Of a stretch of DNA of 64,000 nt, positions 15,296 to 42,320 are shown in pieces. Every line of letters begins with the position of its first letter. Within the stretch, counting starts at the first letter, position 1. The notes under the pieces were generated by a model. The model ran no database searches, was not told where the DNA came from, and saw only the letters and a program-made list of their open reading frames with translations. This DNA is from Bryobacterales bacterium (lineage in GTDB: Bacteria > Acidobacteriota > Terriglobia > Bryobacterales > Bryobacteraceae), in NCBI GenBank assembly GCA_020852755.1, contig JADZAF010000099.1, positions 32,125 to 96,124 of the forward strand. The letters run 5' to 3'. A program made the position numbers and the translations under genes.

Positions 15296-15319
15296 GGACG
15301 CTCCGCGGCTCCTGGGGGG

Positions 15320-16369
15320 ATGTTGAGAGAGGCGATCCGGAGTTTCTTTCCCGGCTACTTCGCCATGGTCATGGCAACGGGGATCGTTTCCATTGCCGCC
15401 CACTGGCTGGAAATGCCTCTGGCCGCCCGGGCCTTGTTCGGGTTCAATGTCGGGCTGTACTGCTTTTTGTGGCTGCTGACGGTCCTGCGCCTGGCCTGGT
15501 TCCCGCGCCTGTTCCTGGACGACCTGTGCGACCACCGCCGCGGCCCGCCCCTGTTCACCCTGGTGGCGGCATCTTCGGTTCTGGGCAGCCAGTTCGTGCT
15601 GCTCGCCGGCCGGTACACCGCCGCTTTCGGTCTCTGGGCGGCCTCGGTGGTTTTGTGGTTCGGCCTGACCTACGCGATCTTTCCCGCCCTGACCGTCAAG
15701 TCCGGCAAACCTCCTTTGCAGGAAGGCATCACCGGAGTCTCGCTGCTGGCCGTGGTGGCCACGCAGTCCATCGCGGTTCTGGGCGCCCTGCTGGCCGCGC
15801 ACTGGCGCCAGCCCTACCGCCTGGAGGCCAATTTCTTCTCCCTCTGTATGTGGCTGTGCGGCGGCATGCTGTACATCTGGATCATCTCGCTGATCTTCTA
15901 CCGCTACACCTTCCTGCGCTTCTCGCCCGCCGACCTGGCCCCTTCCTATTGGATCAACATGGGCGCCATGGCCATCTCCGCGCTGGCTGGAGCGCGGCTG
16001 ATTGAAAACGCGCCTGACGCCCCGTTTCTGAATTCACTGCTTCCGTTCCTCAAGGGCTTCACGCTGTTCTACTGGGCTACCGGCACGTGGTGGATCCCGA
16101 TGCTGGGGGTTCTGGCGGTCTGGCGCTACGTCTACAGGCGGTCCCCGCTCCGGTATGATGCCTCCTACTGGGCGGCGGTGTTTCCTTTGGGCATGTATAC
16201 CGTTTGCACCTGGGAAATGGCCCGGGCGCTGGAGATGGCGTTCCTCTACGCCATCCCCCGGTTCTTCGTGTACGTCGCGCTGGCCGCCTGGGCCGCGGCC
16301 CTGGCGGGCCTGAGCTGGCGCCTGCTGCGCCGCCCGGGGAAGACCATCCCGGCGCCGCAGACCGGCTGA
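15320..16369 (+). CDS. TDT family transporter (TehA / C4-dicarboxylate-malic acid transporter-like)
   Basis: 10-TM protein with the TehA-like N-terminal pattern (FAMVMATGIVSIAAH). Confidence 0.7.
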   Translation: MLREAIRSFFPGYFAMVMATGIVSIAAHWLEMPLAARALFGFNVGLYCFLWLLTVLRLAWFPRLFLDDLCDHRRGPPLFTLVAASSVLGSQFVLLAGRYTAAFGLWAASVVLWFGLTYAIFPALTVKSGKPPLQEGITGVSLLAVVATQSIAVLGALLAAHWRQPYRLEANFFSLCMWLCGGMLYIWIISLIFYRYTFLRFSPADLAPSYWINMGAMAISALAGARLIENAPDAPFLNSLLPFLKGFTLFYWATGTWWIPMLGVLAVWRYVYRRSPLRYDASYWAAVFPLGMYTVCTWEMARALEMAFLYAIPRFFVYVALAAWAAALAGLSWRLLRRPGKTIPAPQTG

Positions 16370-17784: not shown

Positions 17785-17985
17785 AAAGGCCTGTTCGACC
17801 CTCGGGCAGGGGAGAGGGTGATTCCCGGAAAGCGCCCGTGGCGCAAGCCGGATCGGGGCCGTGGATGGCCGGACCTGACGGGAGCAGCAAGCCTCCTCCG
17901 GTGAGATAGAATCGTGGTCTGCGGCGCCGCTCGCGGATCGCACGGACGGCCAACCCCAGAAAGTCTGTCCGGCCGGAGGGGCGCC

Positions 17986-20900: not shown

Positions 20901-21936
20901 GGCCAAGGAGATCCTGCCCCCCGGCGACCCCGCCGTCGAGCTGTTGGACGGGGTCATCAAGACCGGAGAGCAGGCGGCTCACCTCACCCGGCAGATGCTG
21001 GCCTACGCCGGCCGCGGGAAGTTCCTGCTGGAACCGTTGGACCTCTCCGCGCTCATCCCCGAGATGAGCGCCCTGCTGCGCACCTCGATCTCGAAGAAGA
21101 TCGCCCTGCACTTCAACCTGGAAAAGGATCTGCCCGCCATTGAGGCTGATCGCGGCCAGGTGCAGCAGGTGTTCATGAACCTGGCGCTGAACGCCGCCGA
21201 AGCCATCGGCAGCGGCGACGGCCTGATCTCCATCCGCACCGGCGTCCAGGATGTGGACGGGCGTTTTCTCCGCCTCCATCCCCAGGCCGCTTCACTGCCG
21301 CCGGGACGGTACGTGTGCCTGGAGGTGACCGACACGGGCTGCGGCATGGACGAGGCCACCCGGGCCAGGATCTTCGACCCCTTCTTCTCCACCAAGTTTA
21401 CCGGCCGGGGGCTGGGCCTCGCGGCCGTCGCGGGCATCGTTCGCGGACACGGCGGCGCCATCACGGTGAGCAGCATGCCGGGGCAGGGCAGCTGCTTCAC
21501 GGTGCTGCTGCCGCAGGCGGCTCGCGGGGTGGACCAGCGGCCGGCAGTGGCCGGCGCCGACGCGCTCCACGGCGCCGGAACCGTTCTCGTGGTGGACGAT
21601 GAGCAGATCGTCCGCGAGATGGCGCGAAAGGCGCTCCAACGCCACGGCTATACGGTCCTGCAGGCGGACGGCGGGCCGGCCGCGATCGATATCTTCCGTA
21701 GATACCCCGGCGAGATCGCCCTGGTGCTGCTCGACCTGAGCATGCCGGGAATGAGCGGCGAGGAAACGCTGCGCGGGCTCCGCAAAATCCGTCCGGACGT
21801 CAAAGTAGTGCTTTCCAGCGGCTACAGTGAAGCCGAGACGATGGAAGCGTTTCAGGGCCAGCCGGTTTCCGGATTCATCCAGAAACCGTACACGGCCCGG
21901 GGCCTGGCGGAAAAAGTGAAAGCCTGGGTGAGTTGA
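17986..21936 (+). CDS. hybrid sensor histidine kinase/response regulator (N-terminal REC, multiple PAS, HisKA, HATPase_c, C-terminal REC)
   Basis: N-terminal receiver with conserved Asp (VVLPLELPG...), four or more PAS-like segments, an H-box HDFNNLL, a G-box DTGCGMD...GRGLGLA, and a C-terminal receiver (VLVVDDE...LLDLSMPGMSG). Confidence 0.85.
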   Translation: MAHTILVVGDAGAGSRARARCFREAGFEVLEAAAGTDALELASAARPAVVVLPLELPGAGGFRLCRQLKADPRTASIPVLHISGRGGSAGYPESLRSGAEACLQEPVDPPVLLEVVQALLETRPGPDAPGKAESDAAANQRLAALIDSIPDEVWFADNQGRFTLANPSALREFRIDAPGLTTVEDLARSLEVLRPDGAPRPLEEAPPLRALRGETVRAQEEIIRTPASGDLRYREVSASPVRDAAGMIVGSVSVVRDITERKKAEQALRAGEERHRTLFERMTEAFALGEVICGEDGAPCDLRCLTLNPAFERQTGIKGERVSGRTLREVFPAAEAVWVERLGAVALTGGPARFEAWFGPLKRWFEVSAFRAGPGRFGVLFTDVTARRSIEEERQYLAAELANRVGELQAILDAAPVPIWIAHDPQCRRITGNAYADQVVMHARPGGNISLSAPPDSGAPAYRVFREGVELRPEELPAQVAAATGRPTRQEELELVFPDGRAVTLLMAAVPLFDALGNVRGAVAAGADVTRIKKAEEVLKESETVLRSFFDSPGVIRGIVELAEGRIIHVSCNIPAAAALGVDRDAIAGKSLTEAGAPPEIERMWLALSDEIRSTGQPVSREYLRRAAGGQERWLHVTACYVGLGRNGNPRFAYTGFDVTERKRTEEALRNSERIYRAIGESIDYGVWVCDPDGRNTYASESFLNLVGLTQEQCSSFGWGDVLHPEDSQRTIAAWKECVRTEGVWDIEHRFRGVDGEWHPILARGVPVRDEQGRITRWAGINLDIGRLKRAEQSLRESERRERARAAELEAVMNAAPGMILIARDDQCRYLAGNSMAYDLLRRPPGSNLSKSAPEDERPANFRVMKGGVEMPLQELPPQKAALTGQPVRDCEIDLAFDDGSSVSLLGNAVPMLDENGRPRGAVGVFIDITERKRAEDRLREAQKLESLGLLAGGVAHDFNNLLVGVVGNASLAKEILPPGDPAVELLDGVIKTGEQAAHLTRQMLAYAGRGKFLLEPLDLSALIPEMSALLRTSISKKIALHFNLEKDLPAIEADRGQVQQVFMNLALNAAEAIGSGDGLISIRTGVQDVDGRFLRLHPQAASLPPGRYVCLEVTDTGCGMDEATRARIFDPFFSTKFTGRGLGLAAVAGIVRGHGGAITVSSMPGQGSCFTVLLPQAARGVDQRPAVAGADALHGAGTVLVVDDEQIVREMARKALQRHGYTVLQADGGPAAIDIFRRYPGEIALVLLDLSMPGMSGEETLRGLRKIRPDVKVVLSSGYSEAETMEAFQGQPVSGFIQKPYTARGLAEKVKAWVS

Positions 21937-25344: not shown

Positions 25345-26441
25345 ATCTTCTCCAGTTCGCCCAGGAAACGCCGCACCTGCTCCCGGGTGCCTACCGTCAC
25401 GCGCACGCAGCCGGGGATCTCGTAGCTGCGGTCGCGCACCAGCACGCCCTGTTCCCTCAGGCGGTCGCGGATCTGAACGGCCCGCCGCCCCAGCCGCATC
25501 AGGATGAAGTTGCCCATGCTGCGGAAGTACGGGATGCCGAGCAGTTCCAGCCCCACGCCCAGCAGTTCGCGGGCGGCCAGCACCTCGGCCACGTACTCCT
25601 CCACGTAGGCCCGGTCGCGCACCGCCTCCACCGCGGCCAGCGCCGCCAGCGCGTTCACGCTGTAAGGCGATTGCGCCTTGTGCAGGAAGGCGATGTTGGC
25701 CGGCTGCGAGAACAGGCACCCCAGGCGCAGCGCCGCCATCCCGAACACCTTCGAGAACGTGCGGCTGACGAACAGGTTGGGGCTGCGCTCGATCAGCGGC
25801 AGCCCGGTGATCCCGCAGAACTCGAAGTAGGCTTCGTCGATCAGCACCGCGGCGTTGCGCGCGCGCTTCAGGATCTTCTCGATGGCCGGCAGTTGCACCC
25901 CGGTGCCGGTGGGATTGTTGGGATTGGCGATCAGGATCGCTTTGGTGGAGGGGCCGATGGCGGCCAGCAGTTCCTCCAGCGGAAAGGCCAGGTCTTCCGG
26001 GCGGTAGTCGATCTCGCGGATGCAGGCGCCCGCCACCTCCGCATAAAAGCGGTACATGGCGTAGGCGGGACGCAGCACCACCACCTCGTCGCCCGCGTTG
26101 GCATACGTGTTGACCAGCAGCTGGATGGCCTCGTCGGTGCCGTTGGTCAGAAGCATCTGCTCGGGCCTGACCCGGAAGAACTCGGCCAGCGCGGGCCGCA
26201 CCTGGCTGTACTCGGGGTAGACCGCCATGTGCTCCGCCGTGAGGTTCCCCTTCAGAAATTCGAGCACGCGCGGCGAACAGCCCAACGTGTTCTCGTTGAA
26301 ATCCAGCCGCAGCTTGCCGGCCCGCCCGTCCGTCGGGGGCGAATAGGGGGCCATGTCGAGCACGGATTGCCGCGGGCGCGGCATGCCCTTGCGCAACCGC
26401 GGAGTCTTAGCCACGGCGGCCTGCCTCCGCTGCCCGCGCAC
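25338..26441 (-). CDS. hisC: histidinol-phosphate aminotransferase
   Basis: Class-I aminotransferase motifs NPNNPTG and [16 protein letters not shown]. The start is uncertain: Met codons at 26441, 26387 and 26357 are all possible. Confidence 0.85.
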
Positions 26442-27687
26442 GGGGCGCCGCGGTCCTCGCCTCGACCGAACGGGCGTGCGCTTCCAGGCCCTCCGTCCTC
26501 GCCAGCGCCGTGATCGACGGCGCCAGCGAACGCAGGCCTTCCGCGCTCAGCTTCTGGACGGAAATCACCTTGACGAAATCCGCCGCCGAAAGCCCGCCGC
26601 GCAGCCGCGCCGCGCCGTTGGTCGGCAGCACGTGGTTGGGGCCGGACGCGTAATCGCCGGCGGCTTCGGGACTGAACGGGCCGATGAAGATGCTGCCGGC
26701 GCTGGTGATCCCGGCCAGCAGCGACTCGTCCGGAATGCTCAGGTGCTCCGGAGCGAACCGGTTGGAGATCTCCACCGCCTCGTCCAGCCTCCGCACCAGC
26801 ACGATGGCGCTGTTACGGTCGATCGAACGCCGGGCCACGGGCGCGGTCGGCAGGTCGCTCAGACGCCTCTCGATCTCCACCGCCACCGCCCGCGCCAGCC
26901 GCCGCGAGGGGGTCAGCAGGAAGGCGCTGGCATCCACGTCGTGCTCGGCCTGTGCCAGCATGTCGGCGGCCAGGCGGGCCGGGTCGCCCTCCTCCGCGAT
27001 GATCAGGATCTCCGTCGGGCCGGCAATGAAATCGATGCCCACCTCCCCGGCCAGCAGTTTCTTGGCTGCCGCCACGTAGATGTTGCCGGGGCCCACGATG
27101 CGCTCGGCCCGGGGCACCGTCTTCGTCCCGTACGCCAGGGCCGCGATGGCCTGCGCGCCGCCCATCTGGAACAGGTGCGTCACGCCCAGCCAGTGCGCCG
27201 TGCCGAGAACTGCCGCCGTGGGACGCGGGCAGGCCGCGCAGACCGTCTTTACCCCGGCCACCTGCGCGGGGATCACGGTCATCATCAGCGTCGAGGGCAG
27301 GGGATAGCGGCCGGCTGGGATGTAGGCGCCCACGGTCTCCAGCGGCCGCACGATCTGTCCCACTCTCAACCCGCGGCTCAACTGCCGCTGCTGCTCGCAG
27401 GGCAGCTGCATGGCCGCGAAGGCCCGGATATTGCCGGAGGCCGTTTCCACCGCGCGGCCGAATCCGGACGGCATGGTCCGGGCGGCCGCCTCCAGTTCCG
27501 CTTCCGGCACGCGCACGGAGCGGCCCTCGAAGCCGTCCAGCTTGCGCGCGTATTCCAGCAGACCGCGGTCCCCCCGCTTCTTCACCGCCTCCAGGATGGG
27601 CCGCACCACCGCTTCCGCCCCTTCCATGCGGGCAGCCCGCCGCGCGAAGAGCCTTTCCAACCCCGTGGATTCAAGGACTCGTATCAT
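26407..27687 (-). CDS. hisD: histidinol dehydrogenase
   Basis: About 426 aa, with HisD-typical ...AGPTE.../...DMLAQAEHD... motifs. Confidence 0.9.
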   Translation of the reverse strand: MIRVLESTGLERLFARRAARMEGAEAVVRPILEAVKKRGDRGLLEYARKLDGFEGRSVRVPEAELEAAARTMPSGFGRAVETASGNIRAFAAMQLPCEQQRQLSRGLRVGQIVRPLETVGAYIPAGRYPLPSTLMMTVIPAQVAGVKTVCAACPRPTAAVLGTAHWLGVTHLFQMGGAQAIAALAYGTKTVPRAERIVGPGNIYVAAAKKLLAGEVGIDFIAGPTEILIIAEEGDPARLAADMLAQAEHDVDASAFLLTPSRRLARAVAVEIERRLSDLPTAPVARRSIDRNSAIVLVRRLDEAVEISNRFAPEHLSIPDESLLAGITSAGSIFIGPFSPEAAGDYASGPNHVLPTNGAARLRGGLSAADFVKVISVQKLSAEGLRSLAPSITALARTEGLEAHARSVEARTAAPRARAAEAGRRG

Positions 27688-27692
27688 AGGCG

Positions 27693-28559
27693 CTACATGA
27701 CGATCTTGTTGAGCGGATACTCGACGATTCCCTCGCCGCCCGCCTGCTTCAGGCGCGGGACAATGCTGCGCACCGTCGATTCATCGACGATGGTGTTCAC
27801 CGCCAGCCAGTCCTCGTCGCTCAGGTGGGACACCGTCGGCCGTTTCAGCGCGGGCAGCACGTTGAGAACCGCTGCCAGGTTGTCGCGGTGCACGTTCAGC
27901 ATCAACCCCACCTTGCCCAGAGCCGCGATGGCGCCGTCCAGCAGCATGCGCATGTCCTCCAGCTTGCGCCGCTTCCACTCGTCCTGCCAGGCGTCGCAGT
28001 TGACGATCAGCTGGGTGTTCGATTCCAGCACCGTGTCGATGATCTTGAGCTTGTTGGCGCGCAGCGACGAGCCCGTCTCGGTCACCTCCACGATGGCGTC
28101 GGCCAGCACCGGCGGCTTGACCTCCGTGGCGCCCCAGCTGAATTCCACCTTGGCCTTCACCCCGTGCGCCGCCAGGTAACGCTTGGTGGTCTCCACCAGC
28201 TCGGTCGCGATGATCCTGCCTTCCAGGTCCCGCACGCTGCGGAAGGGTGAAGCCTCCGGCGCCGCCAGCACCCAGCGCACCTTGCCGAAGCTCTGCTTGG
28301 CGTACACCAGGTCGGCCAGAGCGATCACCTGGGCGCCGCTCTCCTCCACCCAGTCGCGGCCGGTGAGCCCCGCGTCCAGAATGCCGTCCTCCACGTAGCG
28401 CGCCATCTCCTGGGCGCGGATGAGCATGCACTCGATTTCCGGGTCGTCGATGCGCGGGAAGTAGGAGCGGCTGCTGGTGGTGATGGAGTAACCCGCCCGC
28501 CGGAACAGGTCGATGGTGGCGTTTTCCAAACTGCCTTTCGGGATGCCGAGCTTGAGCAT
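27693..28559 (-). CDS. hisG: ATP phosphoribosyltransferase (long form)
   Basis: [12 protein letters not shown]... N-terminus and a 288-aa long-form length. The start overlaps the hisI stop. Confidence 0.9.
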
Positions 28560-28939
28560 CACTTCTGCCCTCCGTAGACCGCCCCCGGCACGTAGCTGGG
28601 CGCTTCCGACTCCACCCAGCGGCCTTCGCTGAGCGAGCGGTAAAAGCAGCTCCGGTAGCCGTTGTGGCAGACGCCCGGCCCCAGGGCCTCGACCTGCACC
28701 AGCACGGCGTCCCGGTCGCAGTCCGTGGATATCGATTTCACCGCCAGGCGGTGCCCCGAGGTCTCGCCCTTCATCCAAAGCTTCCGGCGCGAGCGGCTGT
28801 AAAACGTGGCGAAGCCCGTCTCCACGGTTTGCCGGAAGGCCGCTTCGTTCATGTACCCGACCATCAGTACGCGGCCGGAGGCGTGGTCCTGAATCACGGC
28901 GGTCACCAGACCGCCGGCTTTGTCGAAGTCCAGATCCAT
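28559..28939 (-). CDS. hisI: phosphoribosyl-AMP cyclohydrolase
   Basis: ...[17 protein letters not shown]...WMKGETSGH... is conserved HisI. Start placed at the ATG (MDLDFD...); the track's upstream TTG extension is less likely. Confidence 0.85.
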
Positions 28940-28949
28940 TGAGCGCAAC

Positions 28950-28978
28950 AAAAAAGCCCGCCATCTTTCGTGGCGGGC
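28950..28978 (-). terminator. his attenuator terminator: GCCCGCCA-cgaaaga-TGGCGGGC stem followed by UUUUUU (read on minus strand)
   Basis: An 8-bp GC stem with a 7-nt loop and a 6-U run lies immediately 5' of the hisI start, inside the leader region. Coordinates are accurate to about +/-1. Confidence 0.7.
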
Positions 28979-29023
28979 GTCCTTTCCTTTTACGATTTCG
29001 AGTGAGTTCGAAGCGCGCGCCCG

Positions 29024-29077
29024 TCACACGATGGCGTGGTGGTGATGAGGATGCCGGGCGCTGCGAACTGCTAACAT
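29024..29077 (-). CDS. hisL: his operon leader peptide [17 protein letters not shown] (His-codon attenuator)
   Basis: Minus-strand ATG TTA GCA GTT CGC AGC GCC CGG CAT CCT CAT CAC CAC CAC GCC ATC GTG TGA is preceded by SD GAGGAA. Five of 17 codons are His, four of them consecutive. A terminator follows, and the overlapping segments GCGCCCG/CGGGCGC/CGCCCG allow alternative pairing. Confidence 0.75.
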
Positions 29078-33385: not shown

Positions 33386-36300
33386 CTACCCGTTTTCCCC
33401 CGCGGTTCGGGCGATCTGAAGGAGATAAAAGCGCAGCATATCCTGCTGCCGTCCGGAGAGGGCCTGCTCCTCGATCCGGATAATCTGCTTCACTTCCTTC
33501 ATCGCCCGGACCACGCTGGTGGGAAGCTCCACCGAGCCCCGGGGCATTGACGACAGGTATTCGAAAGCCGCCCGCAGAAAGTGCTGCAGCGAATCCTCGG
33601 CCGGCCCGCTCAGGAACGTCGCCACCTCGCGCGGCTTCTTGGAGATGCCGGAGGTGAAGGGCATCTCGGAAACCGGTGTGCGTTGAGCGATCGAGTGCAG
33701 CGCCGTGGCCAGTTCCACGAAGCTCGCCACGCGCGTGAATACCGGTTCCTGCAGCAGCTCCCAGGCCTTCTCGCGCCAGCCCCGGATCTTTTCCGGAAGC
33801 TCCAGCAGCCGTTCCACCTCCCCGCGCCAGGAGGCCGGCACCCCGCCCCCGATCTCCCGCAGCAGCGCGCCGGCGCTGGTGTTGAAGAGGTCCGGCTGCA
33901 GCAGCACCGCCAGGTCCGGCCGCAGCGCCGGCAGCAGCCGCGGGATGAAGCGATCACCTTCGAAGAACTCGGCCACTTGCACGCCGTGCCGGCGCACCAC
34001 TTCCTTTTGGAACAGCGGGATGGTGGTCCGGATGGAATCCACGTCTTCGCGCAGCAGGGTGAAGGCCGAATTGCCGGCCGGGAACGCGCGCTCCATGGCG
34101 CCCAGCCAGCGCAGCTCCACGTCGTGATAGAGCCGCAGCGAATGCAGGATCTCGTAGACCGGAAGGTGCGGCAGGATCCTGCCGGACAGCATGCCCTCGC
34201 CTTCCCCCTCCGAGGACGGGGTTCGGGCGAACGAACTCAGCGTCCGGAACAGCCCGGTGGTCAACTGGTTGATGCCCAGCAGCAGGGTCTGGGCCTGGTT
34301 GTGCCCGATGGCCCGCAGCGAGCTGCCGTGCCGCGCCAGGGGCACGGTGGCCGCGATCCGCTCCAGGATCTTGTGTCCCCGGCTGGCGGCCACTCCCGGA
34401 GCCGGCCGCACCGTCGGCCGGTCCCGCAGCGGCGGCAGCGTCCGGGCGATGAAGTACGAGATCGCGTAGATGCCCACCACGTCCTCTTCGCGGCCGTAGA
34501 GGATCCGGCGGAAGTTTTCCGCCGCGAGTTTCATGAATTCGTCGAACAGTGGGTCCTGCAATCCCACCGTCAGGCGCCCCAGCTCCTGGAGACCGCGATT
34601 GGTGAATTGGAGCCGGGTTTCCGTCAACGGCTCCGCCGCGCGGCGCAGCTCGTTGGCCGAGAATCGCTGGGCCTGCGTCAGGTGATACAGCACCTGCGCC
34701 AGTTCCTCCACGGGCAGGTGCCGCAGCCGTTCCGCCAGGTTGCTCTGGAAGGTCCGGAGGTCGCCGCTGGCGAACAGTCCCATCAGGGGCGTGGCGGCAT
34801 AGCGCGCGCTGCGCTTGGCCGAAGCTTCCACGAGCCTGCCCAGGGCGGCTTCATTCTCGGAAGTCAGGATGAAGGCGCGCCGGCCGGAGATCGGCGCCAG
34901 GTAGCCGCCCTGCCGCTGCATCGGCTCGCCGCTGCCCATCTTGATGCGCACCTGCCCCACCAGGCCGCGCTCGGCCAGCCAGCGCACGATCTCGTACTTC
35001 GCCTTTTTGAAGGCGGCCAGCCCGGCGGTCTGGCCGACCTGCTGGCTCAGATCCGAGCCGGCGATGAAGACCTCGCACACCATGTCGGAAAACCGCTCCT
35101 CGGTGCTCTCGTTCAACCGGCGGCTCTGGATGGCGTAGTCCCACAGCTTTCCCAGGTAGGCCGGCACGTTGCGCACCACTTCCAGGTCCTCATACAAAGG
35201 CACCAGCCAGATGGAAGGCAGCTCCGGGCAGCCCGAGCGCAGCGCCTGCTCGCGCTTGGCCCGGATCTTGCGGTCCAGCGAGATCAGCGCTTCGGCATCG
35301 GACGCCATGCTCACCTGCAGCGCCAGCACCATGCCGGGGTTGCCCTGCCGGCCCGAAATCTCGTTGATCTCTACAATGTTGTGCACCGTGGTGTCGATGG
35401 CGAAGGGATCCGGCGAGGTCACCAGGTTCTGATGGATGCGCGGCGTGATCACGAAGCGCCGCAGCAGGTCGCGGTAGCCCGCCGCGGCCAGGGCGAATTC
35501 ACTGTCCCGGACGTGCTTGCGCAACTCGCCCAGGTGCGCCCGCAGCGTCTTGCGCAGGGCTTTGTTCAGCGCGAAGTAGTGTTCCAGGGTCTGCCGCCGC
35601 TGCCGCCGCAGTTCCAGCATTCGCCGCTCCAGGCGGTCGTTATGCTCCCACAGCGAGACCACCGGGTCCTGCGCCAGGCGCAGCTTCATCCCCAGCCTGC
35701 GGACTACGCCCGGCCGCACGTCGTAGGGGAGCAGGCCGCGGTAGCGGCGCTCGAGCTGGTGGGTCAGATCGGTGATCGCGTCGAATAGCGCACTGAAGCG
35801 CCGGTTGGCCATCGGCAGCCGCCGCACTTCCTCCACCAGGTTCGGATCCACCGGAAGAGCCGGGTTGGCCCTCAGGAGCATGGCCAGCAGCCGCCCCAGC
35901 CGGGCGCAATTCTCCATCAGCACCGTCGCCACCAGGCGGTGCCCCTGCCCCGACGGCCGGTTGCTGCCGTCCCAATCGCCCCAGTAGGAGAGAAAGGTGG
36001 GGCACTCCGTGGCGGAGCTGAAGCGGGCGAAATCCTCTGCCGCGATCATCGCGTCCAGGTCCAGCAGCAATTCAGTGCCTTCACCCCGCGAGTCGATCGC
36101 CACGTTGAGTCCCAGAAACTCGCGCGCCAGTTCTCTCGCCAGCGGCTGCTCCAGTTCGTCCGCCGGCCGGCCCGCGGTCAGGTTGGCGACGGCGCGCTCC
36201 CAGAGCATCTCCGACTGGATCGAGTACATCTGGGTGGGGTGTACGGTGCGATCGAAAAGCCGCTGCCGGAATGAAACCTGCCGGCGCCCCAGGTCGTCCT

Positions 36301-38971
36301 TGACCAGTTCCTGGTCCAACTGCTGTTCGAGCTTCCTGCCGTCGTCCGCCCGGGCCAGGGCCAGCCACTCCTGGGCCAGTTCCAGGCGGTCCCGGAAGCG
36401 CGAACCGAAGACCTCCAGGCGGTCGTTCAGGAACTCCCCCGGAGAGGCCGCGTCCGCGCTCCACTTGGCGGGCGCGTTCAGTTCCTTCAACTCCCGCCCG
36501 ATGCGCTCCCGGCAGGACTCGGCCACCCGGCTGCTGAAGGCCGCCCACTGCCGCTCCCGCTCGGCTCGCTCCACCCCCTGGTAGAGGCGCCGGCTGGAAA
36601 CGGCCAGCCATTTCCGGTTGTAGTGGGATTCCTCTTCCGCGATCAGCCGGTTCAGATCGATCAGGACGCGGCGGGTCTTGGTTCGAAGCCGGTCCGCGCC
36701 GTCCGTGCCGCCCAGAGTCAGCCGGAACGATTTTCGCGCGGTCTCGAAGCCCTCTTCGGTACGCGCGAAGGTGGAAAGCGGGACGAGGCCGATTCCCTGG
36801 CGCGCCAGTCCCGAGGCGATCCAATCCAGCGAGATTCCCGCCGGGAGCTGCCGCAGCGTCATGCGCGGATACATGCTGCCCGCCGGGCGGGTGAGCGCGA
36901 TCCCGAAGGGATTGCGTTCCGAAGGCAGACCGGCCGCCGCCGTCTCGAGCGCGCTCATCCGCTCCTCGAAGATCGCGTTCCGCAGCCGCCAGTACGAGTT
37001 GGTGCTCTGCGCTCCCTTGCGGTAGAACAGGTAGGCCAGCAGCATCGCTCCGATGTTCGGCGCGATGGTGCTGTTGACGGCTTCAAACCGCCGGTGCAGC
37101 TCCGCGTCCCGGATCTCGATCACCGAAAGCCGGGCGCCCGCCAGGCAATCCGTCTTCGAGAGCGAATGCACCGTGACCACCCGGCCGGCCTGTTCCGCCG
37201 TGAGGTAGCCCCGGCCCGCCAGGTCGTCGGCCAGTTGCCGCAGCGTGGCGGGTCCCTGCAATTCCCTGGAAGGCGCCACGTTCTGGTAGGAAAGGTCGTC
37301 GATCACCAGCACCCCGCGCTCCAGGAAATGCCGGAGCAGGGTGCGCAGCGCCTCTTCGGAAAAGACCTGGCCGGTGGCGTTGTGCGGGTTGTTGAAGACC
37401 ACCGCTCCGTGATTGCGCCACGCGGGGTCCCCGGCCAGCCGCTGCTCGACCGCCTCGATCATCCGCTCCACGTCCAGTTCAAACTCCGGGGTAAGGGGAA
37501 CCGCGGTCACTTTCGGGAAGCAGTGTTCGTAGGTCCAGCTCAGGTCCGGAATCACCACCTCCCGGATCCCGCAGTGGAACCCGAGCAGGCTGAGACCGGT
37601 GCGCGCCGATCCGCTCACCGCCATGCAGCGGTCGAAGCGGTACTCCGGGTGATGCCGCAGGAAAGCGGCAAGGAAAGCGCCGGGCAGTTCCGCGTGCCGG
37701 GCCGGCAGCGCTTCGAGCAGTTCGAGGAACCCCAGCCCCTCGAAGGGATCGCCGATGAACGAGTCGCGCAGCGCGGGCTCCCACAGTCTCTCCGCCCGCT
37801 CCGCGGCCCGCGCGGATGCCGCATCCAGCCGCTGTTCGATCCTCTCTCCCCAGGCGCTCGAAATCCGGGCTGCCCTGGCCTGGATCGCGGCAATGGCCGC
37901 TCCGGCCGCCCGGTAGGCCCCCTCCAGAACCGCATGGTTTTCGTCGTACAGCCGTTCCTCCGCCTCCGGCCGGGTTTCCAATTTCGGCAATCCCCGCTTC
38001 AGCAGAAAGGTCAATAGTTCGACTTCGGCCGCCGAGGGAGTGCCCTTCACTTGAAAGTGCAAGGTCTCGATCATCCGGATGAATTCGTCGAAACCGGCGA
38101 TGAAGACCGTGGACAGTTCCTTGAGGCGCGGGGAGAAGATGCCCGGAGTGAGGAACCGCAGGGTGCGGTGCATCATCTTCGCTTCCCGCGCCACCGACAG
38201 GTGGTTCGGGGCGTCGTTCACCTCCACGATGAACAGCGGGTAGTCGCGGCTGATCAGCCGCAGCCTGCGCCGCGTCTCTTCCGGAAGAATCCTGCCCAGC
38301 AGCACGAAAGACGGCCGGACCCCATTGGGCGCCAGGGAGGTTTCCAGCAGCGTCGCGGCGGCGCTTTCGTTTTCGGGAAGCGGATGCAACCGGAGCGCCT
38401 CAAACTGCCTCAGGTGAGGCGGAATCCGGATCCCGTGCGTGAAGATGGTCGCCGGCAGGTGCTCCAACTGCGTCGAGAGGGCGTGAAAGAAGACCCGCAG
38501 CGCCTCGTAGATCCCGCCCGACGCCAGGATCACTTCCCGCCGCCCGGTCTTCTCGCCGAAATCGTAGGTCAGCGGCTCCGGCTGTTTCGCCAGCCACTCG
38601 CCGAACAGCCGGATCAGCTCCCCCGGCTTGTTCTTCAGGAATCCGCCCCGCGGCAGATACGGCGCGCTGTTCCGGATGAGGTTCAGCAGGAACTCGATTT
38701 TGCCCCGGTCTTCCGCCTCCCAGCCCAGCTCGGCGCTCAGAGCCTGCGCCAGGTCGCCCGTCCCCGCCTTCTCTCCCCCTTCCAGTCCCAGCGCGATTCG
38801 GGCATACAATTCCGCCAGGCGCGGGTCCTGCACCGGGTTGCCGATATGGAAGTTGACGCGCTCTTCGGGCGGCGCGGGCGAGGACGCCGTGGCTTCGCTG
38901 ATCTCCGAAACCACCGCGGCCTTCACCGGCCGCAGGGCAAAGACGTCGGGTGAACTCTCACGCATGCGCAT
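33386..38971 (-). CDS. 1861-aa multidomain protein: class-I/II PLP aminotransferase-fold domain(s) fused to a C-terminal divergent PEP-carboxylase-like domain
   Basis: Aminotransferase motifs at residues 527-534 (NNPHNATG) and 603-615 (SLSKTDCLAGARL), with VNFHIGNPVQDP near the N-terminus. C-terminal region: GRQGNP (cf. PEPC GGDRDGNP), VPLYEDLEVVRNVP (cf. VPLFETxxDLxNA), FIAGSDLSQQ (cf. MIGYSDSAKD), KMGSGEPMQRQGG (cf. FHGRGGSIGRGG), and a C-terminal ...IARTAGENG (cf. ...IAAGMRNTG). Confidence 0.65.
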   Translation of the reverse strand: MRMRESSPDVFALRPVKAAVVSEISEATASSPAPPEERVNFHIGNPVQDPRLAELYARIALGLEGGEKAGTGDLAQALSAELGWEAEDRGKIEFLLNLIRNSAPYLPRGGFLKNKPGELIRLFGEWLAKQPEPLTYDFGEKTGRREVILASGGIYEALRVFFHALSTQLEHLPATIFTHGIRIPPHLRQFEALRLHPLPENESAAATLLETSLAPNGVRPSFVLLGRILPEETRRRLRLISRDYPLFIVEVNDAPNHLSVAREAKMMHRTLRFLTPGIFSPRLKELSTVFIAGFDEFIRMIETLHFQVKGTPSAAEVELLTFLLKRGLPKLETRPEAEERLYDENHAVLEGAYRAAGAAIAAIQARAARISSAWGERIEQRLDAASARAAERAERLWEPALRDSFIGDPFEGLGFLELLEALPARHAELPGAFLAAFLRHHPEYRFDRCMAVSGSARTGLSLLGFHCGIREVVIPDLSWTYEHCFPKVTAVPLTPEFELDVERMIEAVEQRLAGDPAWRNHGAVVFNNPHNATGQVFSEEALRTLLRHFLERGVLVIDDLSYQNVAPSRELQGPATLRQLADDLAGRGYLTAEQAGRVVTVHSLSKTDCLAGARLSVIEIRDAELHRRFEAVNSTIAPNIGAMLLAYLFYRKGAQSTNSYWRLRNAIFEERMSALETAAAGLPSERNPFGIALTRPAGSMYPRMTLRQLPAGISLDWIASGLARQGIGLVPLSTFARTEEGFETARKSFRLTLGGTDGADRLRTKTRRVLIDLNRLIAEEESHYNRKWLAVSSRRLYQGVERAERERQWAAFSSRVAESCRERIGRELKELNAPAKWSADAASPGEFLNDRLEVFGSRFRDRLELAQEWLALARADDGRKLEQQLDQELVKDDLGRRQVSFRQRLFDRTVHPTQMYSIQSEMLWERAVANLTAGRPADELEQPLARELAREFLGLNVAIDSRGEGTELLLDLDAMIAAEDFARFSSATECPTFLSYWGDWDGSNRPSGQGHRLVATVLMENCARLGRLLAMLLRANPALPVDPNLVEEVRRLPMANRRFSALFDAITDLTHQLERRYRGLLPYDVRPGVVRRLGMKLRLAQDPVVSLWEHNDRLERRMLELRRQRRQTLEHYFALNKALRKTLRAHLGELRKHVRDSEFALAAAGYRDLLRRFVITPRIHQNLVTSPDPFAIDTTVHNIVEINEISGRQGNPGMVLALQVSMASDAEALISLDRKIRAKREQALRSGCPELPSIWLVPLYEDLEVVRNVPAYLGKLWDYAIQSRRLNESTEERFSDMVCEVFIAGSDLSQQVGQTAGLAAFKKAKYEIVRWLAERGLVGQVRIKMGSGEPMQRQGGYLAPISGRRAFILTSENEAALGRLVEASAKRSARYAATPLMGLFASGDLRTFQSNLAERLRHLPVEELAQVLYHLTQAQRFSANELRRAAEPLTETRLQFTNRGLQELGRLTVGLQDPLFDEFMKLAAENFRRILYGREEDVVGIYAISYFIARTLPPLRDRPTVRPAPGVAASRGHKILERIAATVPLARHGSSLRAIGHNQAQTLLLGINQLTTGLFRTLSSFARTPSSEGEGEGMLSGRILPHLPVYEILHSLRLYHDVELRWLGAMERAFPAGNSAFTLLREDVDSIRTTIPLFQKEVVRRHGVQVAEFFEGDRFIPRLLPALRPDLAVLLQPDLFNTSAGALLREIGGGVPASWRGEVERLLELPEKIRGWREKAWELLQEPVFTRVASFVELATALHSIAQRTPVSEMPFTSGISKKPREVATFLSGPAEDSLQHFLRAAFEYLSSMPRGSVELPTSVVRAMKEVKQIIRIEEQALSGRQQDMLRFYLLQIARTAGENG

Positions 38972-38999: not shown

Positions 39000-39989
39000 T
39001 TACGAGCCTTCCCGTTTCCCCTCGCCCGGCAGTTGCTTCTTGACGCCGCCCTCCATGGCCAGCTCCAGAAACCGCTGGAACATGGCTGAAAGCTTGGACT
39101 CCCTTTCGGCATCCGGCGACCATAGGGAAACGATGGTGCGGGCGTTCTTCAGATTCTGGCTCGCCTCGGCCAGGCGCGCGGCCTGCGGGCTCAGCAGCAG
39201 CAGTTCCGGACTGCTCTTCAACAGCGCCAGTTCCTCGCCCTCGAAGGCCAGCTTCATGCGGCTGCGCTTCAGTTCGTCTTCGGTGCGCTTCTCCGCCAGA
39301 ATCGCTTCCTGCTCCAGTTCGCTCCGGCGCAGATCGTATTTCTTGATTTCCAGTTCGTGCTCCGAAAGCGCAATCTGCTCGTCGGCCTCGATCTTCGCCC
39401 GGGCGGCCGCCACCCGGGCCTGCTGGTTGAGCAGTTCGGTCTGTTCCAGAATGCGCGCCGATTCTCGCCGCCGCATGGCTTCCGCAATCTCGGGATCGGC
39501 GGGGTCCACCGACTGCACGGTCAGGGAAACCAGTTCCAGGCCGAACTGCGGCGCCCGCGCCGTGATGCCCGCCGTGAGGTGCCCGCCCAGCTTCTCCGAG
39601 GACAGCTCCTCGATCACGTATTTCTCGGTGTACTCCTTGACGATGCCCTGGATGACCGTCTCGAATTCCTTGGCGGCCTTCACCACCGCGTCCCGTTTCC
39701 ACCCGCCCACGCGGACCAGGCTCTCCAGGTTGTCCCTCGAGGGGGCCACCGTGACTACCAGCGCGGTCCGGATCTGCACGCTGCCGCGGGCCGCGCCCTC
39801 GATCTTCAACTCGATCTGGTGGGTGGTGCCGGGCAGCGCCAGGCTGAAATGGCGGGGATAGAAAGCCCCGCCGCGCAGCCGGATCTTCCCATCGGCCTCA
39901 TACAGCACCAGCTGGTCCGGCTTGCGAAGCCGGTATTCGTATATGGCCAGCGCGATCAGTAGCGCGGCAACAACCACTGCGATCCACAT
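39000..39989 (-). CDS. SPFH/band-7 (stomatin/flotillin-like) family protein
   Basis: N-terminal TM anchor, an SPFH core, and a long Ala/Glu-rich coiled coil. It ends 29 nt upstream of the 1861-aa ORF on the same strand. Confidence 0.8.
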   Translation of the reverse strand: MWIAVVVAALLIALAIYEYRLRKPDQLVLYEADGKIRLRGGAFYPRHFSLALPGTTHQIELKIEGAARGSVQIRTALVVTVAPSRDNLESLVRVGGWKRDAVVKAAKEFETVIQGIVKEYTEKYVIEELSSEKLGGHLTAGITARAPQFGLELVSLTVQSVDPADPEIAEAMRRRESARILEQTELLNQQARVAAARAKIEADEQIALSEHELEIKKYDLRRSELEQEAILAEKRTEDELKRSRMKLAFEGEELALLKSSPELLLLSPQAARLAEASQNLKNARTIVSLWSPDAERESKLSAMFQRFLELAMEGGVKKQLPGEGKREGS

Positions 39990-40103: not shown

Positions 40104-42320
40104 TTATCGCGCAAGGCTCTCTATGTAGCGTCCGTCGTAGTAGTAGAAGAAGCCGTCCTCCGCTCCAATGATCAGGTCCAGCTTTCCGTCCCCGTTCCAG
40201 TCCACGACATTGGGCGTCGGATTATGTCCGGCCAGTTTCGCACGGACCAGCGTTCCGCGCAACTGCATCACCGGCCGTTCCTGGCTGCCGGTATTCTCGT
40301 GCCACACCGGCCCTTCGTCGGAATCGGTCACCAGGTCCAGGTCTCCGTCGCGGTCCAGGTCGGCCAGCTCGATCTTCCTCCGGCCGCTCGCCCCCGCGCG
40401 CCCCGATGCCAGGTTCAGAAACCGGCCGGCCGGGGTCACGAAGATCCGTTCCGGGGGCAGCAGGCGCAGACCACCGTTCCCCTTCGTCCGCCGGTAGAGG
40501 CTCAGGTAGCCCTGGTGGTTGAGCATCACCAGGTCGGGCAGGCCGTCCCGGTCCCAGTCCACGATCTTTGGAGTGGTCCGCCACTGGGTGACCAGTTGCT
40601 TTCCCACCGGCTGCCACCAGTTCCACTCCGGCTTGGGGGCCGGCCCCGGCCACTCCACCTCCACCGGTGCGGCCGCGGCCAGTTCCGGCGCGGTCTTCGT
40701 CCCTGTGTTGCGGTACCAGACGATGTCGCCCCGGATGTCGTTCACCAGGATATCCAGCTTCCCGTCCAGGTCCCAGTCCCCCACTGACGGATTGCTGTAG
40801 CCCCACTTGGCCTCCGCGGGCCCTTGAATCGATCCGTCCGGGCCGGCGATCCTGCGGGTCGTCCTGCCGCCCGCTTTGAGATACCCGCGGTCGGCGAACA
40901 CCGGCTCCTGCCGTGTGCCCGTGTTCTCGAAGAACTGCAGGTAGCCCGCGGAAGTTCCGGCCAGGATGTCGAGCCGTCCATCCCCGTTCCAGTCCACCGC
41001 CACGGGCCGGGACAGCACTCCGGCCTTGAGATACGGGTCGACCTGCTCCAGGTACCGTGGGGCCGCCAGTTCCGGCTCCGACCCGCGCGGCGCCATGTTC
41101 TCCGCCAGCGAAACCGTGCCGTCCTCTTCCGCGATCAGCAGCGAAGGGCCTCGGTCCGCCCGCCAGTACACCACCCGCGGCTGGATCATGCACAGGTCCA
41201 TGCGCAGCGGGACCCCGCCTGCCCGCACCAGCTCGCCGGCCGCCAGCCGCGGCGCCGTCCGGGTCCCGGTGTTGCGAAACAGCGTGACCGTGTCCACGAA
41301 GCTGCCGCCGATCAGGTCGAACACCCCCCGGCCGAGCCAGTCCACCGGGCTGGGCGCCGGGCTGCCGTACAGGTCGACCGGCCTGCCGCCCGCTTCCAGC
41401 TTGACGGGCGGCTCGTAGTCCGGCCGCTCATTGGCGCCCCGGTTGCGGTGCAGGTAGACGTAGCCGTGCAGCGGCCCGCGCGTCCACTCGCCCTTTTCGT
41501 TGAAGGCGTCGTCCCAGCCGTAATCGCGCCAGTCGCTCACCCCCACCAGCAGGTCGATGCGCCCGTCTCCGTCCCAGTCGAACGGCTGCCACATCTCGTC
41601 CCGGCCGATGAAGTAGTCCCGGGCGGGCGTCACCTTCACGAAGCGGGACAGGCGATTGCGGCGGAAGTCGGAGTAGTAGCCTCCGATGGTGACCAGGTCC
41701 GCGGCGCCGTCGCCGTTGAAATCGGCGGCGGTCAGCTCTCTCAGCCCGGGGCCCAGCCACTCGGCCCGCTCGAACAGGGGATCCAGGTTGGAACCCAGGT
41801 TCACGAAAAGGTAGGTGCCGTTGTAGGGACGGTCCGGACAGGCGATCACCAGGTCCGTGTCGCCGTCGCCGTCCGCGTCCAGCGCCGCCGGCCGGGGCTG
41901 CAAGCCGACCGCGACACGGTTCCTGACTCCGCTCCGGCCATAGGTGATGCGGTCGCCCGTGCCCACCATGGCCGGAGCCGCGAGACGGCGGGTCTCGCCT
42001 CCCGCGCCTTCGTCGAAATAAACGTAGTAAGCCGGCGCGCCGGACGAAAAGAAACTCACCCGGGCGGCCGGGTTGCGCCATTCGGTCTTGGAAGGGAGCA
42101 CATCGCGGTCCCCTTCCGCGATCACCCGCACCGAATCGGGGTTGAACCCCGCGGGCGCCGTGAATTCCAGCGCAACCGGAACGCCCTTCGCCGCGGCGCA
42201 GGGGTGCCGGATCCGCAGCCGGTTTGACGTCGGCCACACAGCCTGCCCGCGCTTCTCGATGGCGGCACCCCAGAGAACAGCGGCCAGGAGCAGTGGAACG
42301 GGCAGGAGGCGCATGGGCAT
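40104..42320 (-). CDS. FG-GAP/VCBS-like repeat exported protein
   Basis: Signal peptide, and repeated DxDGDGxxDL(v) Ca-binding-like motifs (DADGDGDTDL, DFNGDGAADL, DWDGDGRIDL, DWNGDGRLDI, DWDLDGKLDI, DWDRDGLPDL, DLDRDGDLDL, DWNGDGKLDL). Confidence 0.7.
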   Translation of the reverse strand: MPMRLLPVPLLLAAVLWGAAIEKRGQAVWPTSNRLRIRHPCAAAKGVPVALEFTAPAGFNPDSVRVIAEGDRDVLPSKTEWRNPAARVSFFSSGAPAYYVYFDEGAGGETRRLAAPAMVGTGDRITYGRSGVRNRVAVGLQPRPAALDADGDGDTDLVIACPDRPYNGTYLFVNLGSNLDPLFERAEWLGPGLRELTAADFNGDGAADLVTIGGYYSDFRRNRLSRFVKVTPARDYFIGRDEMWQPFDWDGDGRIDLLVGVSDWRDYGWDDAFNEKGEWTRGPLHGYVYLHRNRGANERPDYEPPVKLEAGGRPVDLYGSPAPSPVDWLGRGVFDLIGGSFVDTVTLFRNTGTRTAPRLAAGELVRAGGVPLRMDLCMIQPRVVYWRADRGPSLLIAEEDGTVSLAENMAPRGSEPELAAPRYLEQVDPYLKAGVLSRPVAVDWNGDGRLDILAGTSAGYLQFFENTGTRQEPVFADRGYLKAGGRTTRRIAGPDGSIQGPAEAKWGYSNPSVGDWDLDGKLDILVNDIRGDIVWYRNTGTKTAPELAAAAPVEVEWPGPAPKPEWNWWQPVGKQLVTQWRTTPKIVDWDRDGLPDLVMLNHQGYLSLYRRTKGNGGLRLLPPERIFVTPAGRFLNLASGRAGASGRRKIELADLDRDGDLDLVTDSDEGPVWHENTGSQERPVMQLRGTLVRAKLAGHNPTPNVVDWNGDGKLDLIIGAEDGFFYYYDGRYIESLAR

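Follow-up and report, generated by a model that had tools for sequence, protein, structure and literature searches.

A conserved 1861-residue protein joins a class I aminotransferase module to a predicted, divergent PEP carboxylase-fold module and is encoded beside an SPFH gene

INTRODUCTION

Could a single polypeptide lead PEP through oxaloacetate to aspartate? PEP carboxylase (PEPC) is known in two sequence types, the bacterial/plant and the archaeal one. The question is raised by one very long frame in a 64,000-nucleotide stretch of a Bryobacterales bacterium contig (JADZAF010000099.1, the whole stretch being the window hereafter), which a preliminary description, made from the letters alone, had read as a class I aminotransferase fused to a divergent PEPC-like C-terminal domain. 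Here we analysed the frame, its modules, their catalytic residues and the neighbouring genes.

RESULTS

The frame encodes one conserved polypeptide

The giant ORF lies on the minus strand, a point left unstated before, and runs as a single uninterrupted frame of 1861 codons plus a stop codon at 33386..38971, as had been claimed; the NCBI call of the identical protein (P0001) has 1859 aa, which would fit initiation two codons further on. Homologues of full length number more than 120, at 52-79% identity and ~100% coverage, and relatives with chains of ~1790-1950 aa are present in at least six phyla, in 284 out of the 185,579 species genomes, a patchy distribution combined with a very high and even conservation (~50% identity between phyla along the 1861 aa). 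The C-terminal family comprises only 206 clusters among 1.84 billion representatives, and in every complete member the domain forms the end of a ~1800-1950-aa chain and is never free-standing. Pieces of only 200-1400 aa are found among the database entries, as would be expected if two or three adjacent genes had been joined by a frameshift or an assembly error; these pieces, however, are contig ends or long-read contigs with differing break points in which the SPFH neighbour (below) is broken too, and the same architecture and length recur in hundreds of independent assemblies of several phyla, by which the artefact reading is already refuted and can be put aside with near certainty. Thus, the fusion is real and strongly conserved, not an assembly join, and the gene product, which contains no hydrophobic segment, is one soluble 1861-aa polypeptide of three modules with variable helical linkers.

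Whether the fusion is conserved or split in related genomes had been raised as a check, and the protein proved to be full-length in the 284 species genomes, and no natural split form was detected. Candidate split forms in the long-read contigs of one sample were rejected for their differing break points and the likewise broken SPFH gene. Databases name the family only 'aminotransferase' or 'hypothetical'; no described architecture of this kind was found in the libraries searched or in full-text literature searches, in agreement with the preliminary description, and the latter searches also returned no biochemical data for any member.

The central module is a class I aminotransferase

When the whole protein and each module in turn were scanned against Pfam, NCBIfam and PADLOC, PF00155 alone was matched, at residues 434-757 (E 1.4e-15, 57.8 bits versus a gathering cut-off of 19.7) and from profile position 51 onwards; with the module searched alone (residues ~431-790, 36602..37681, minus strand) the score rose to 61.4 bits. 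The motifs quoted earlier were found in place, NNPHNATG at 527-534 and SLSKTDCLAGARL at 603-615, and the claimed class I core with its PLP-lysine was thereby confirmed. N531, D559, Y562, K606, R614 and R750, housed in the motifs NPHNATG, DDLSY, SLSK, GARL and FRLT, are each invariant in 174/174 members of the family alignment, whose identities go down to 36%; by motif, we take them to be N194, D222, Y225, K258, R266 and R386 of pig AspAT. The PLP-lysine is K606 (codon 37154-37156). Foldseek placed the module next to Thermus AspAT, LysN, MsAT, KAT and ACC synthase (E ~1e-14, TM 0.65-0.69) at 14-21% identity to the solved enzymes. A near-invariant and unusual segment, DLSWTYEHCFP, also belongs to this module.

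The amino-acid specificity was not indicated by NCBIfam, in which many equivalogs gave weak partial matches and none came near its cut-off, the best being AvtA (valine-pyruvate transaminase, E 1.5e-8, 33.8 bits versus a cut-off of 402), nor by the structural neighbours, which span AspAT, LysN, KAT and ACC synthase. The invariant Arg457 was considered as a counterpart of the distal-carboxylate lysine of subgroup Ib AspAT; the spacing differs in the one alignment that reaches this stretch of the chain.

The C-terminal module has a predicted PEPC fold

Residues ~891-1861 (33389..36301, minus strand) escape all PEPC sequence models. Neither PEPcase (PF00311) nor PEPcase_2 (PF14010) was matched in Pfam at E up to 10 by the whole protein or its C-terminal 1002 aa, no PEPC model in NCBIfam at E up to 1, and no PEPC in family-profile HMM searches of PDB sequences; only noise came from BLASTP and tblastn searches with E. 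coli Ppc of the giant protein, the window and the 83 loci. The profile searches proposed as a refuting check therefore upheld the aminotransferase part through PF00155 but returned no significant match to the PEPcase families for the PEPC-like part.

The structure model of the module (pLDDT 79.5, pTM 0.81) tells otherwise: the top 38 of 38 Foldseek matches were PEPC (E 3e-9 to 2e-6), and the next match had E 0.5, so that the predicted fold, an eight-stranded barrel with its surrounding helices, is specifically that of PEPC to the exclusion of other PEP/pyruvate barrels. In the model, conserved motifs follow the successive strands, namely TVH911PTQ, WGDWDGSNR1005P, TPR1178IHQ and LQVSM after strands 1-4, and VPLYE1261, AGSD1307LSQ1310, KMGS1347GEPMQR1353QGG and LRT1407FQ1409S after strands 5-8; RDR1518PTVR1522P, LR1553AI and the C-terminal E-N1860-G1861 stand behind the barrel. 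The motifs quoted earlier all occur (VPLYEDLE at 1257-1264, FIAGSDLSQQ at 1302-1311, KMGSGEPMQRQGG at 1344-1356 and the terminal TAGENG).

At the sequence level, an hhalign comparison with E. coli Ppc as a lone sequence was unstable (one profile gave E 0.086, another a different top alignment at E 0.32). Against a reference profile built from a diverse 11-sequence alignment of plasmid-borne ppc genes, it gave E 0.014 (0.006 in local mode with relaxed settings) at a probability of 3-6%, a score no better than that of block-shuffled controls. We therefore relied on the count of colinear identities invariant in both the giant family and bacterial/archaeal PEPC, which amounted to 25 versus 2-7 in reversed or block-shuffled controls. 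The landmark order of PEPC is in this sense reproduced as had been claimed, except for one assignment: GRQGNP (1207-1212), previously equated with GGDRDGNP, stands before barrel strand 4, and the true counterpart is WGDWDGSNRP (997-1006) after strand 2. Taken together, the model shows a highly divergent PEPC-fold barrel, and the proposed union of a class I aminotransferase and a divergent PEPC-like C-terminal domain in one conserved chain is borne out.

Most catalytic residues of PEPC are retained and a few are replaced

With PEPC residues numbered as in E. coli, hhalign paired H138 with H911, R253 with R1005, E506 with E1261, D543 with D1307, R587 with R1353, R699 with R1518, R703 with R1522 and R713 with R1553, and each counterpart is invariant in 174/174 members. 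The catalytic His, which had been thought substituted, is thus present, TVH911PTQ being aligned with TAHPTE, and so are the metal ligands E1261 (E506 of PLFE) and D1307 (D543 of GYSDS). Among the arginines for the PEP phosphate, R1518 and R1553 are taken from the alignment, whereas R1178, also invariant in the family, lies outside it and was equated with R396 by strand order only, TPRIHQ ending model strand 3 as DIRQ does in PEPC. The C-terminal Gly is invariant. The residues of the PEPC aspartate/malate allosteric site found no aligned counterparts; a single one, N881, was assigned to N1860 (N in 157/174 members, S in 16/174), by its position from the C-terminus.

A non-catalytic ligand sensor or scaffold that regulates or organises the aminotransferase, the alternative offered in the preliminary description, would go along with the missing PEPC profile match, some replaced canonical residues, and the long helical linkers and SPFH scaffold partner. 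But E1261 and D1307 are 100% invariant among 174 members with identity down to 36%, likewise H911, R1178, R1353, R1518, R1522, R1553 and the C-terminal Gly, and such residues are normally lost in pseudo-enzymes; this invariance of the His, the metal ligands, R1353 and the assigned PEP-phosphate arginines therefore disfavours the pseudo-enzyme reading, which we consider improbable.

Other PEPC residues are replaced. The Lys of GYSDSxK is changed to Q1310 (K546), as noticed earlier, and this Gln is fixed in all 174 members. In place of the Gly-rich loop FHGRGGxxGRGG stands K-M-G-S-G-E-P-M-Q-R-Q-G-G, where the first Arg is substituted (R581 to S1347) and the second is kept (R587=R1353); the preliminary description had listed the Arg of GRGG as apparently substituted. 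H579 is changed to M/L at 1345, positions 1345 and 1347 varying among few residues; E141 is Q914 in TVHPTQ; and TEQGE is altered, its assignment to T1407/Q1409 resting on model strand order outside the hhalign alignment.

In PEPC, Lys546 is linked to bicarbonate handling, and because it is replaced here the second substrate may not be bicarbonate. Both modules might then be catalytic with the PEPC-fold module using PEP or a related 2-oxo/enol-phosphate acid without carboxylation, by phosphoryl transfer or hydrolysis to enolpyruvate/pyruvate and on to alanine, by the reverse reaction, or by attack on another electrophile. The changes at the bicarbonate/mobile-loop sites (K546, R581, H579 and E141) speak for such chemistry, as do valine-pyruvate transaminase as best partial aminotransferase model and a sequence distance to both PEPC types equal to their distance to other barrels. 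Yet the counterparts of Arg587 and of His138, which acts in the carboxyphosphate step of PEPC, are invariant, the fold is that of PEPC and of no other PEP/pyruvate barrel, and plain PEP hydrolysis would squander a high-energy phosphate; the non-carboxylating options, even when pooled, appear to us somewhat unlikely.

The N-terminal module and the linkers

Residues 1-335 (37967..38971, minus strand) form an alpha/beta domain, which includes the quoted VNFHIGNPVQDP at 39-50 and had been described as a tandem aminotransferase-like region. Searches of Pfam, NCBIfam and PDB sequences gave it no match, and relatives were found only within the giant-protein family. In the structure model its strands and helices follow one another as they do in the large domain of fold-type I PLP enzymes, and when it was aligned by hhalign with the aminotransferase module of the same family, a topologically equivalent register came out at E 0.077. 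The tandem idea hence fits in register and secondary-structure order but lacks a profile match beyond that E-value, and resemblance to a lysine-less PLP-fold large domain is a weakly supported suggestion from these two lines. The PLP-lysine position is taken by Arg262 (R in 161/174 members), H42, G44, P46, E146, G153, S259 and R272 are invariant, and a peptide near the N-terminus (residues 11-35) is conserved. Both linkers on this strand are poorly conserved: linker 1 (residues ~336-430, 37682..37966, minus strand) is modelled as one long helix at 349-401 with low pLDDT at both ends, and linker 2 (residues ~791-890, 36302..36601, minus strand) is helical.

A membrane-anchored SPFH gene accompanies the giant gene

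A gene for a 329-aa SPFH/Band-7 protein (39000..39989, minus strand) precedes the giant ORF, with 28 nt between its end and the start of the latter. Its product matches PF01145 with 38 bits versus a cut-off of 23.6, and begins with a single transmembrane helix (residues 1-19, mean hydropathy 2.18) followed by RLRK and an E/K/R/A/L-rich helical region; neither an NCBIfam model nor a PDB sequence was matched. This conserved partner gene had been missed in the preliminary description.

In 75 of 83 loci an SPFH gene immediately precedes the giant gene in the same orientation. Of the remaining eight, five have no upstream flank, and in the other three a CstA-family (pyruvate/peptide) transporter gene directly follows the giant gene, a further point in favour of a PEPC-fold module working without carboxylation. 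No other conserved neighbour was found among the 83 loci. The SPFH identity falls in step with that of the giant protein, the two being on the same contigs, and the giant gene and its dedicated membrane-anchored SPFH gene make up a two-gene unit, conserved in Acidobacteriota, Ignavibacteriota/Melioribacteraceae, Kryptoniota, Calditrichota and Anaerolineae; the giant protein is also present in KSB1. Full-text searches found no literature on such an operon. From gene order and parallel divergence, a physical association of the SPFH protein with the enzyme is suggested speculatively.

Such a self-contained pair, patchily distributed and with no conserved metabolic neighbours, might instead be a stress, defence or secondary-metabolite cassette outside central metabolism. 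Against this, PADLOC matched neither protein, biosynthetic-cluster neighbours were absent, and the even conservation is unlike that of fast-evolving defence genes, making the cassette reading highly improbable.

DISCUSSION

One of the closest known systems is archaeal-type PEPC (atPEPC/PepcA, PF14010; 3odm), which shares the barrel and the placement of catalytic residues after its strands (Foldseek E 5e-9, most of the chain covered), with only 15% identity and PF14010 unmatched. Archaeal-type PEPC is a free-standing chain of ~55-60 kDa (PMC8100219), whereas the C-terminal module has ~970 residues, roughly twice as many, and is always the C-terminal part of a long chain. In size it is nearer to bacterial/plant PEPC (Ppc, PF00311; 1jqn, 3zge, 5vyj), both having ~900-980 residues, and colinear motifs are shared from TAHPTE/TVHPTQ, GGDRDGNP/GDWDGSNRP, VISMA/QVSMA, PLFE/PLYE and GYSDS/AGSDL to GRGGxxGRGG/GSGEPMQRQG, SRPxKR/DRPTVR, LRAIP/LRAIG and the terminal N-x-G. 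It differs from this type in the unmatched PF00311, the changes at K546, H579, R581 and, by strand order, TEQGE, its different inserts and the fusion to other modules. The aminotransferase module has the full PLP set of class I enzymes (PF00155) such as Thermus AspAT, LysN, kynurenine aminotransferases and ACC synthase, which are, however, homodimers of ~400-aa chains, while in the giant protein the module is embedded between two others.

The explanation we tentatively prefer, as a serious possibility although not a probable one, is a dual enzyme that converts PEP via oxaloacetate to aspartate, as read from the sequences. Both modules would be active: the C-terminal one would bind PEP with Mg2+/Mn2+, transfer the phosphoryl group to bicarbonate and release oxaloacetate as in PEPC, and the aminotransferase would turn this unstable 2-oxo-dicarboxylate into aspartate with glutamate or another donor. 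Carboxylation and transamination combined would therefore make an essentially irreversible PEP-to-aspartate conversion by one chain, with the net reaction PEP + HCO3- + amino donor -> aspartate + Pi. More speculatively, the N-terminal module could take the place of the partner subunit required by class I aminotransferases, which would allow a dimeric enzyme to be fused to a tetramer-forming one, and the SPFH protein could keep the assembly at the cytoplasmic membrane face.

Assembly into membrane-bound rings or cages is a general trait of SPFH proteins (PMC12624060, PMC11348225). As in the HflK/C-FtsH and stomatin-NfeD pairs, a membrane-anchored SPFH gene adjoins a conserved specific partner in the giant locus; here the partner is a predicted soluble 1861-aa metabolic enzyme, and the pairing is known from the genes. 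The fullest version of the dual-enzyme explanation, a membrane-tethered metabolic machine of a kind not recognised before, in which a third, very deep PEPC lineage is linked, via an internal pseudo-dimer, to the aminotransferase acting downstream of it and the enzyme is held or enclosed at the cytoplasmic membrane by an SPFH ring or cage, is in our estimation unlikely. If true, it would be the first SPFH assembly with a central-metabolic client, as opposed to a protease or membrane protein, and the tethered enzyme might make a local site of bicarbonate capture and aspartate synthesis.

For bacterial SPFH proteins, whose functions are mostly unknown, the giant protein is a concrete candidate client, and the idea is testable in Melioribacter, some members of which are in culture. 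The channelling of unstable oxaloacetate would have a natural example in a covalent PEPC-aminotransferase fusion, which should interest enzymologists as well as those who engineer aspartate-family products. The giant family would constitute a third, deeply divergent PEPC lineage missed by current annotation profiles. If PEP is carboxylated, one anaplerotic CO2-fixing step is absent from the metabolic models of Ignavibacteria, Melioribacteraceae, Anaerolineae, Calditrichia, KSB1 and Bryobacteraceae, groups that are frequent in sediments, sludge, hot springs and soils, and the giant protein may form aspartate straight from PEP and bicarbonate.

The giant gene is a single gene and its fusion is universal

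The window has a G+C content of ~66%, and the giant ORF runs uninterrupted on the minus strand from 38971 down to 33386, encoding 1861 residues, in which all motifs quoted in the preliminary description were located where it had placed them. A deposited metagenome-assembled genome of Bryobacterales (Acidobacteriota) encodes an identical protein, which was called with two codons fewer and annotated only as 'pyridoxal phosphate-dependent aminotransferase'. Among 5.8 billion proteins searched, >120 were homologues of 1848–1924 aa (52–79% identity, ~100% coverage), and relatives were found in 284 of 185,579 genomes scanned, one per species, namely those of Bryobacteraceae/Solibacteraceae, Ignavibacteriota, Melioribacteraceae, Kryptoniota, Calditrichota and Chloroflexota-Anaerolineae; cluster look-ups added candidate division KSB1 to the host range.

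By a full HMMER pass over 1.84 billion representatives, the C-terminal 1002 residues were retrieved in only 206 clusters, the complete members of which were all 1790–1950 aa with the domain always C-terminal; a 994-aa 'free' representative of the domain shares its cluster with an 1891-aa protein. Short N-terminal pieces on long contigs came from one long-read sample, ERZ25039514, whose loci L095 (8001–13621) and L096 (6975–13617) carry the giant gene called as three pieces. Natural fission was rejected here, since the break points differ between the two genomes (410+558+911 versus 339+695+675) and the upstream SPFH gene of L096 is split too, so the pieces are indel errors. Given the full-length homologues and the C-terminal position of the domain in every complete member, the fusion is thus universal in this family, conserved rather than split in related genomes, and the hundreds of full-length homologues exclude the merging of adjacent genes or an assembly join.

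An intact aminotransferase module follows a possible pseudo-partner

Conservation and two AlphaFold2 models (residues 1–859, pLDDT 85.4, pTM 0.80; residues 860–1861, pLDDT 79.5, pTM 0.81) delimited three conserved modules, with variable helical linkers between them. The middle one (residues ~431–790) is a bona fide PF00155 member (E = 1.4e-15, 57.8 bits versus a cut-off of 19.7), and in Foldseek it matched class I enzymes (E ~1e-14, TM 0.65–0.69), including Thermus AspAT, LysN, multiple-substrate aminotransferase, kynurenine aminotransferases and ACC synthase. N531, D559, Y562, the Schiff-base K606, R614 and R750 were invariant in 174/174 full-length members with identity down to 36%, bearing out the class-I core with its PLP lysine.

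The N-terminal module (residues 1–335) matched nothing in Pfam, NCBIfam or the sequences of the PDB, and searches for relatives of it found none beyond the giant-protein family. Its predicted strand/helix order parallels the large domain of PLP fold-type I, and its hhalign pairing with the family's own aminotransferase module is topologically equivalent (ILASGG/VSGSA, LLGRILPEE/NNPHNATGQ, VEVNDAPNH/IDDLSYQNV), albeit at a weak E of 0.077 and with Arg262 at the PLP-lysine position. With a parallel predicted fold order set against the missing profile match and this E-value, the tandem pseudo-dimer suggested earlier is plausible, and the module might serve as a surrogate partner subunit. Two further stretches, a near-invariant DLSWTYEHCFP in the aminotransferase module (residues 478–488 region, window 37508–37540) and an N-terminal peptide, F11...KAAxVSEISEATASSP (residues 11–35, window 38867–38941), are both conserved well above ordinary aminotransferase needs and may be interface or docking elements.

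The C-terminal module has a PEPC fold and counterparts of several PEPC active-site residues

The C-terminal module (residues ~891–1861) matched no sequence profile in Pfam, NCBIfam or an HMM search of PDB sequences, so the proposed PEPC likeness held for the fold and not for the profile: the best 38 Foldseek matches in the PDB were all PEPCs (E = 3e-9 to 2e-6; maize, E. coli, Arabidopsis, Flaveria and archaeal type), and the match after these had an E of 0.5. Profile–profile comparison with 11 PEPCs, plasmid- or chromid-borne ppc products of proteobacteria and a haloarchaeon with 29–58% identity to the E. coli enzyme (MG1655 reference), was weak (E = 0.014; 0.006 under relaxed settings) and yet colinear across 631 columns. 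It superposed 25 residues invariant in both families, versus 2 in the reversed control and 2–7 in ten block-shuffled ones.

In this hhalign alignment, E. coli T136, H138, P139 and T140 correspond to T909, H911, P912 and T913; R253 to R1005; S475 to S1221; P503, L504 and E506 to P1258, L1259 and E1261; S542 and D543 to S1306 and D1307; G580 and G582 to G1346 and G1348; R587 and G589 to R1353 and G1355; R699, P700 and R703 to R1518, P1519 and R1522; and R713, A714 and I715 to R1553, A1554 and I1555. By strand order only, R396 (DIRQ) was paired with R1178 (TPRIHQ), and TEQGE with T1407/Q1409 (LRTFQS). Each mapped residue is invariant in 174/174 members, and each of the eight barrel strands in the model terminates in a PEPC-mapped motif. 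Accordingly, the TAHPTE histidine, thought to be substituted, is retained as H911, and the counterpart of GGDRDGNP is WGDWDGSNRP (997–1006), GRQGNP instead preceding strand 4. Alignment and model together show a barrel in which the PEPC histidine and both metal ligands are predicted to have counterparts, as are the second arginine of the loop and two PEP-phosphate arginines.

Four PEPC residues are replaced (K546 by Q1310, H579 by M/L1345, R581 by S1347, E141 by Q914); Q1310 and Q914 are fixed in 174/174 members, and a small set of residues occurs at each of positions 1345 and 1347. The suspected loss of the GYSDSAKD lysine and a GRGG arginine therefore holds, except that the second loop arginine is kept. 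Lys546 of PEPC has been linked to bicarbonate handling, and its replacement speaks for the main rival to a PEPC reaction, a barrel that puts PEP to a different use, which we consider somewhat less likely than the PEPC reaction itself.

Proposed chemistry

Conservation and modelling show that one conserved single chain combines an aminotransferase site that is intact with a barrel of PEPC fold. From the complete invariance of the mapped residues across phyla, we infer that both sites work; a non-catalytic barrel is quite unlikely. PEPC forms carboxyphosphate and enolate and then fixes CO2 to give oxaloacetate (PMC8100219). The simplest chemistry joining both sites, which we put forward tentatively, is that the barrel would perform this reaction and the oxaloacetate would then be transaminated to aspartate.

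A gene for a dedicated SPFH membrane protein accompanies the giant gene

Directly upstream on the minus strand, after a 28-nt gap, lies an SPFH/Band-7 gene (PF01145, 39000–39989, 329 aa), whose product carries a single transmembrane helix at its N terminus together with a charged helical region. The giant protein is devoid of hydrophobic segments. By tblastn, 75 of the 83 loci, which come from five phyla, carry an SPFH orthologue as the next gene upstream in the same orientation, and the SPFH homologues share taxa, contigs and a parallel identity gradient (100 to 56%) with the giant protein, showing that the two are encoded together. Five of the remaining eight loci have no upstream sequence; the other three, L012 (11557–13775, CstA gene apparently frameshifted), L037 (11615–13684) and L073 (7471–9567), form one Bryobacteraceae/Solibacteraceae subclade with the upstream flank present and a CstA-family (PF02554, pyruvate/peptide transporter) gene directly downstream on the same strand. 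Clustering of all flanking ORFs gave no conserved neighbour besides SPFH, and defence-system models matched neither protein.

The other window neighbours (among them YceI, pirin, sigma-54 activator, his genes, FG-GAP protein, S15 peptidase) are unrelated and not conserved elsewhere. The 738-aa FG-GAP/VCBS-repeat protein (40104–42320, minus), upstream of the SPFH gene, and a more distant 1340-aa hybrid histidine kinase (17914–21936, plus) with several PAS domains and two matches to receiver domains are not kept beside the giant gene in other genomes. The mechanical ORF bearing hisG (27693–29027, minus, 444 aa), followed by hisD (26407–27687), has its HisG domain beginning at residue 204, so either translation truly starts well inside this ORF or the protein is extended by ~200 aa at its N terminus. 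Two long overlapping ORFs at 13652–16005 (716 aa, minus; 558 aa, plus) had no Pfam match and no tandem repeats were found there; the AT skew of block 14001–16000 is unusually strong (−0.36).

Placement among known systems

The C-terminal module shares structural homology with PEPC, the archaeal type being the nearest, and is predicted to work alike. Because it fails the profiles of both PEPC Pfam families and partly lacks the glycine-rich loop signature, we place it outside both known types and regard it as a third lineage, one that occurs fused. Full-text literature searches turned up no paper about this architecture or the SPFH operon. SPFH proteins generally assemble as rings or cages (PMC12624060, PMC11348225), and an SPFH ring might tether the giant enzyme to the membrane or enclose it. 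The surprising parts are this SPFH pairing and a possible new class of PEPC.
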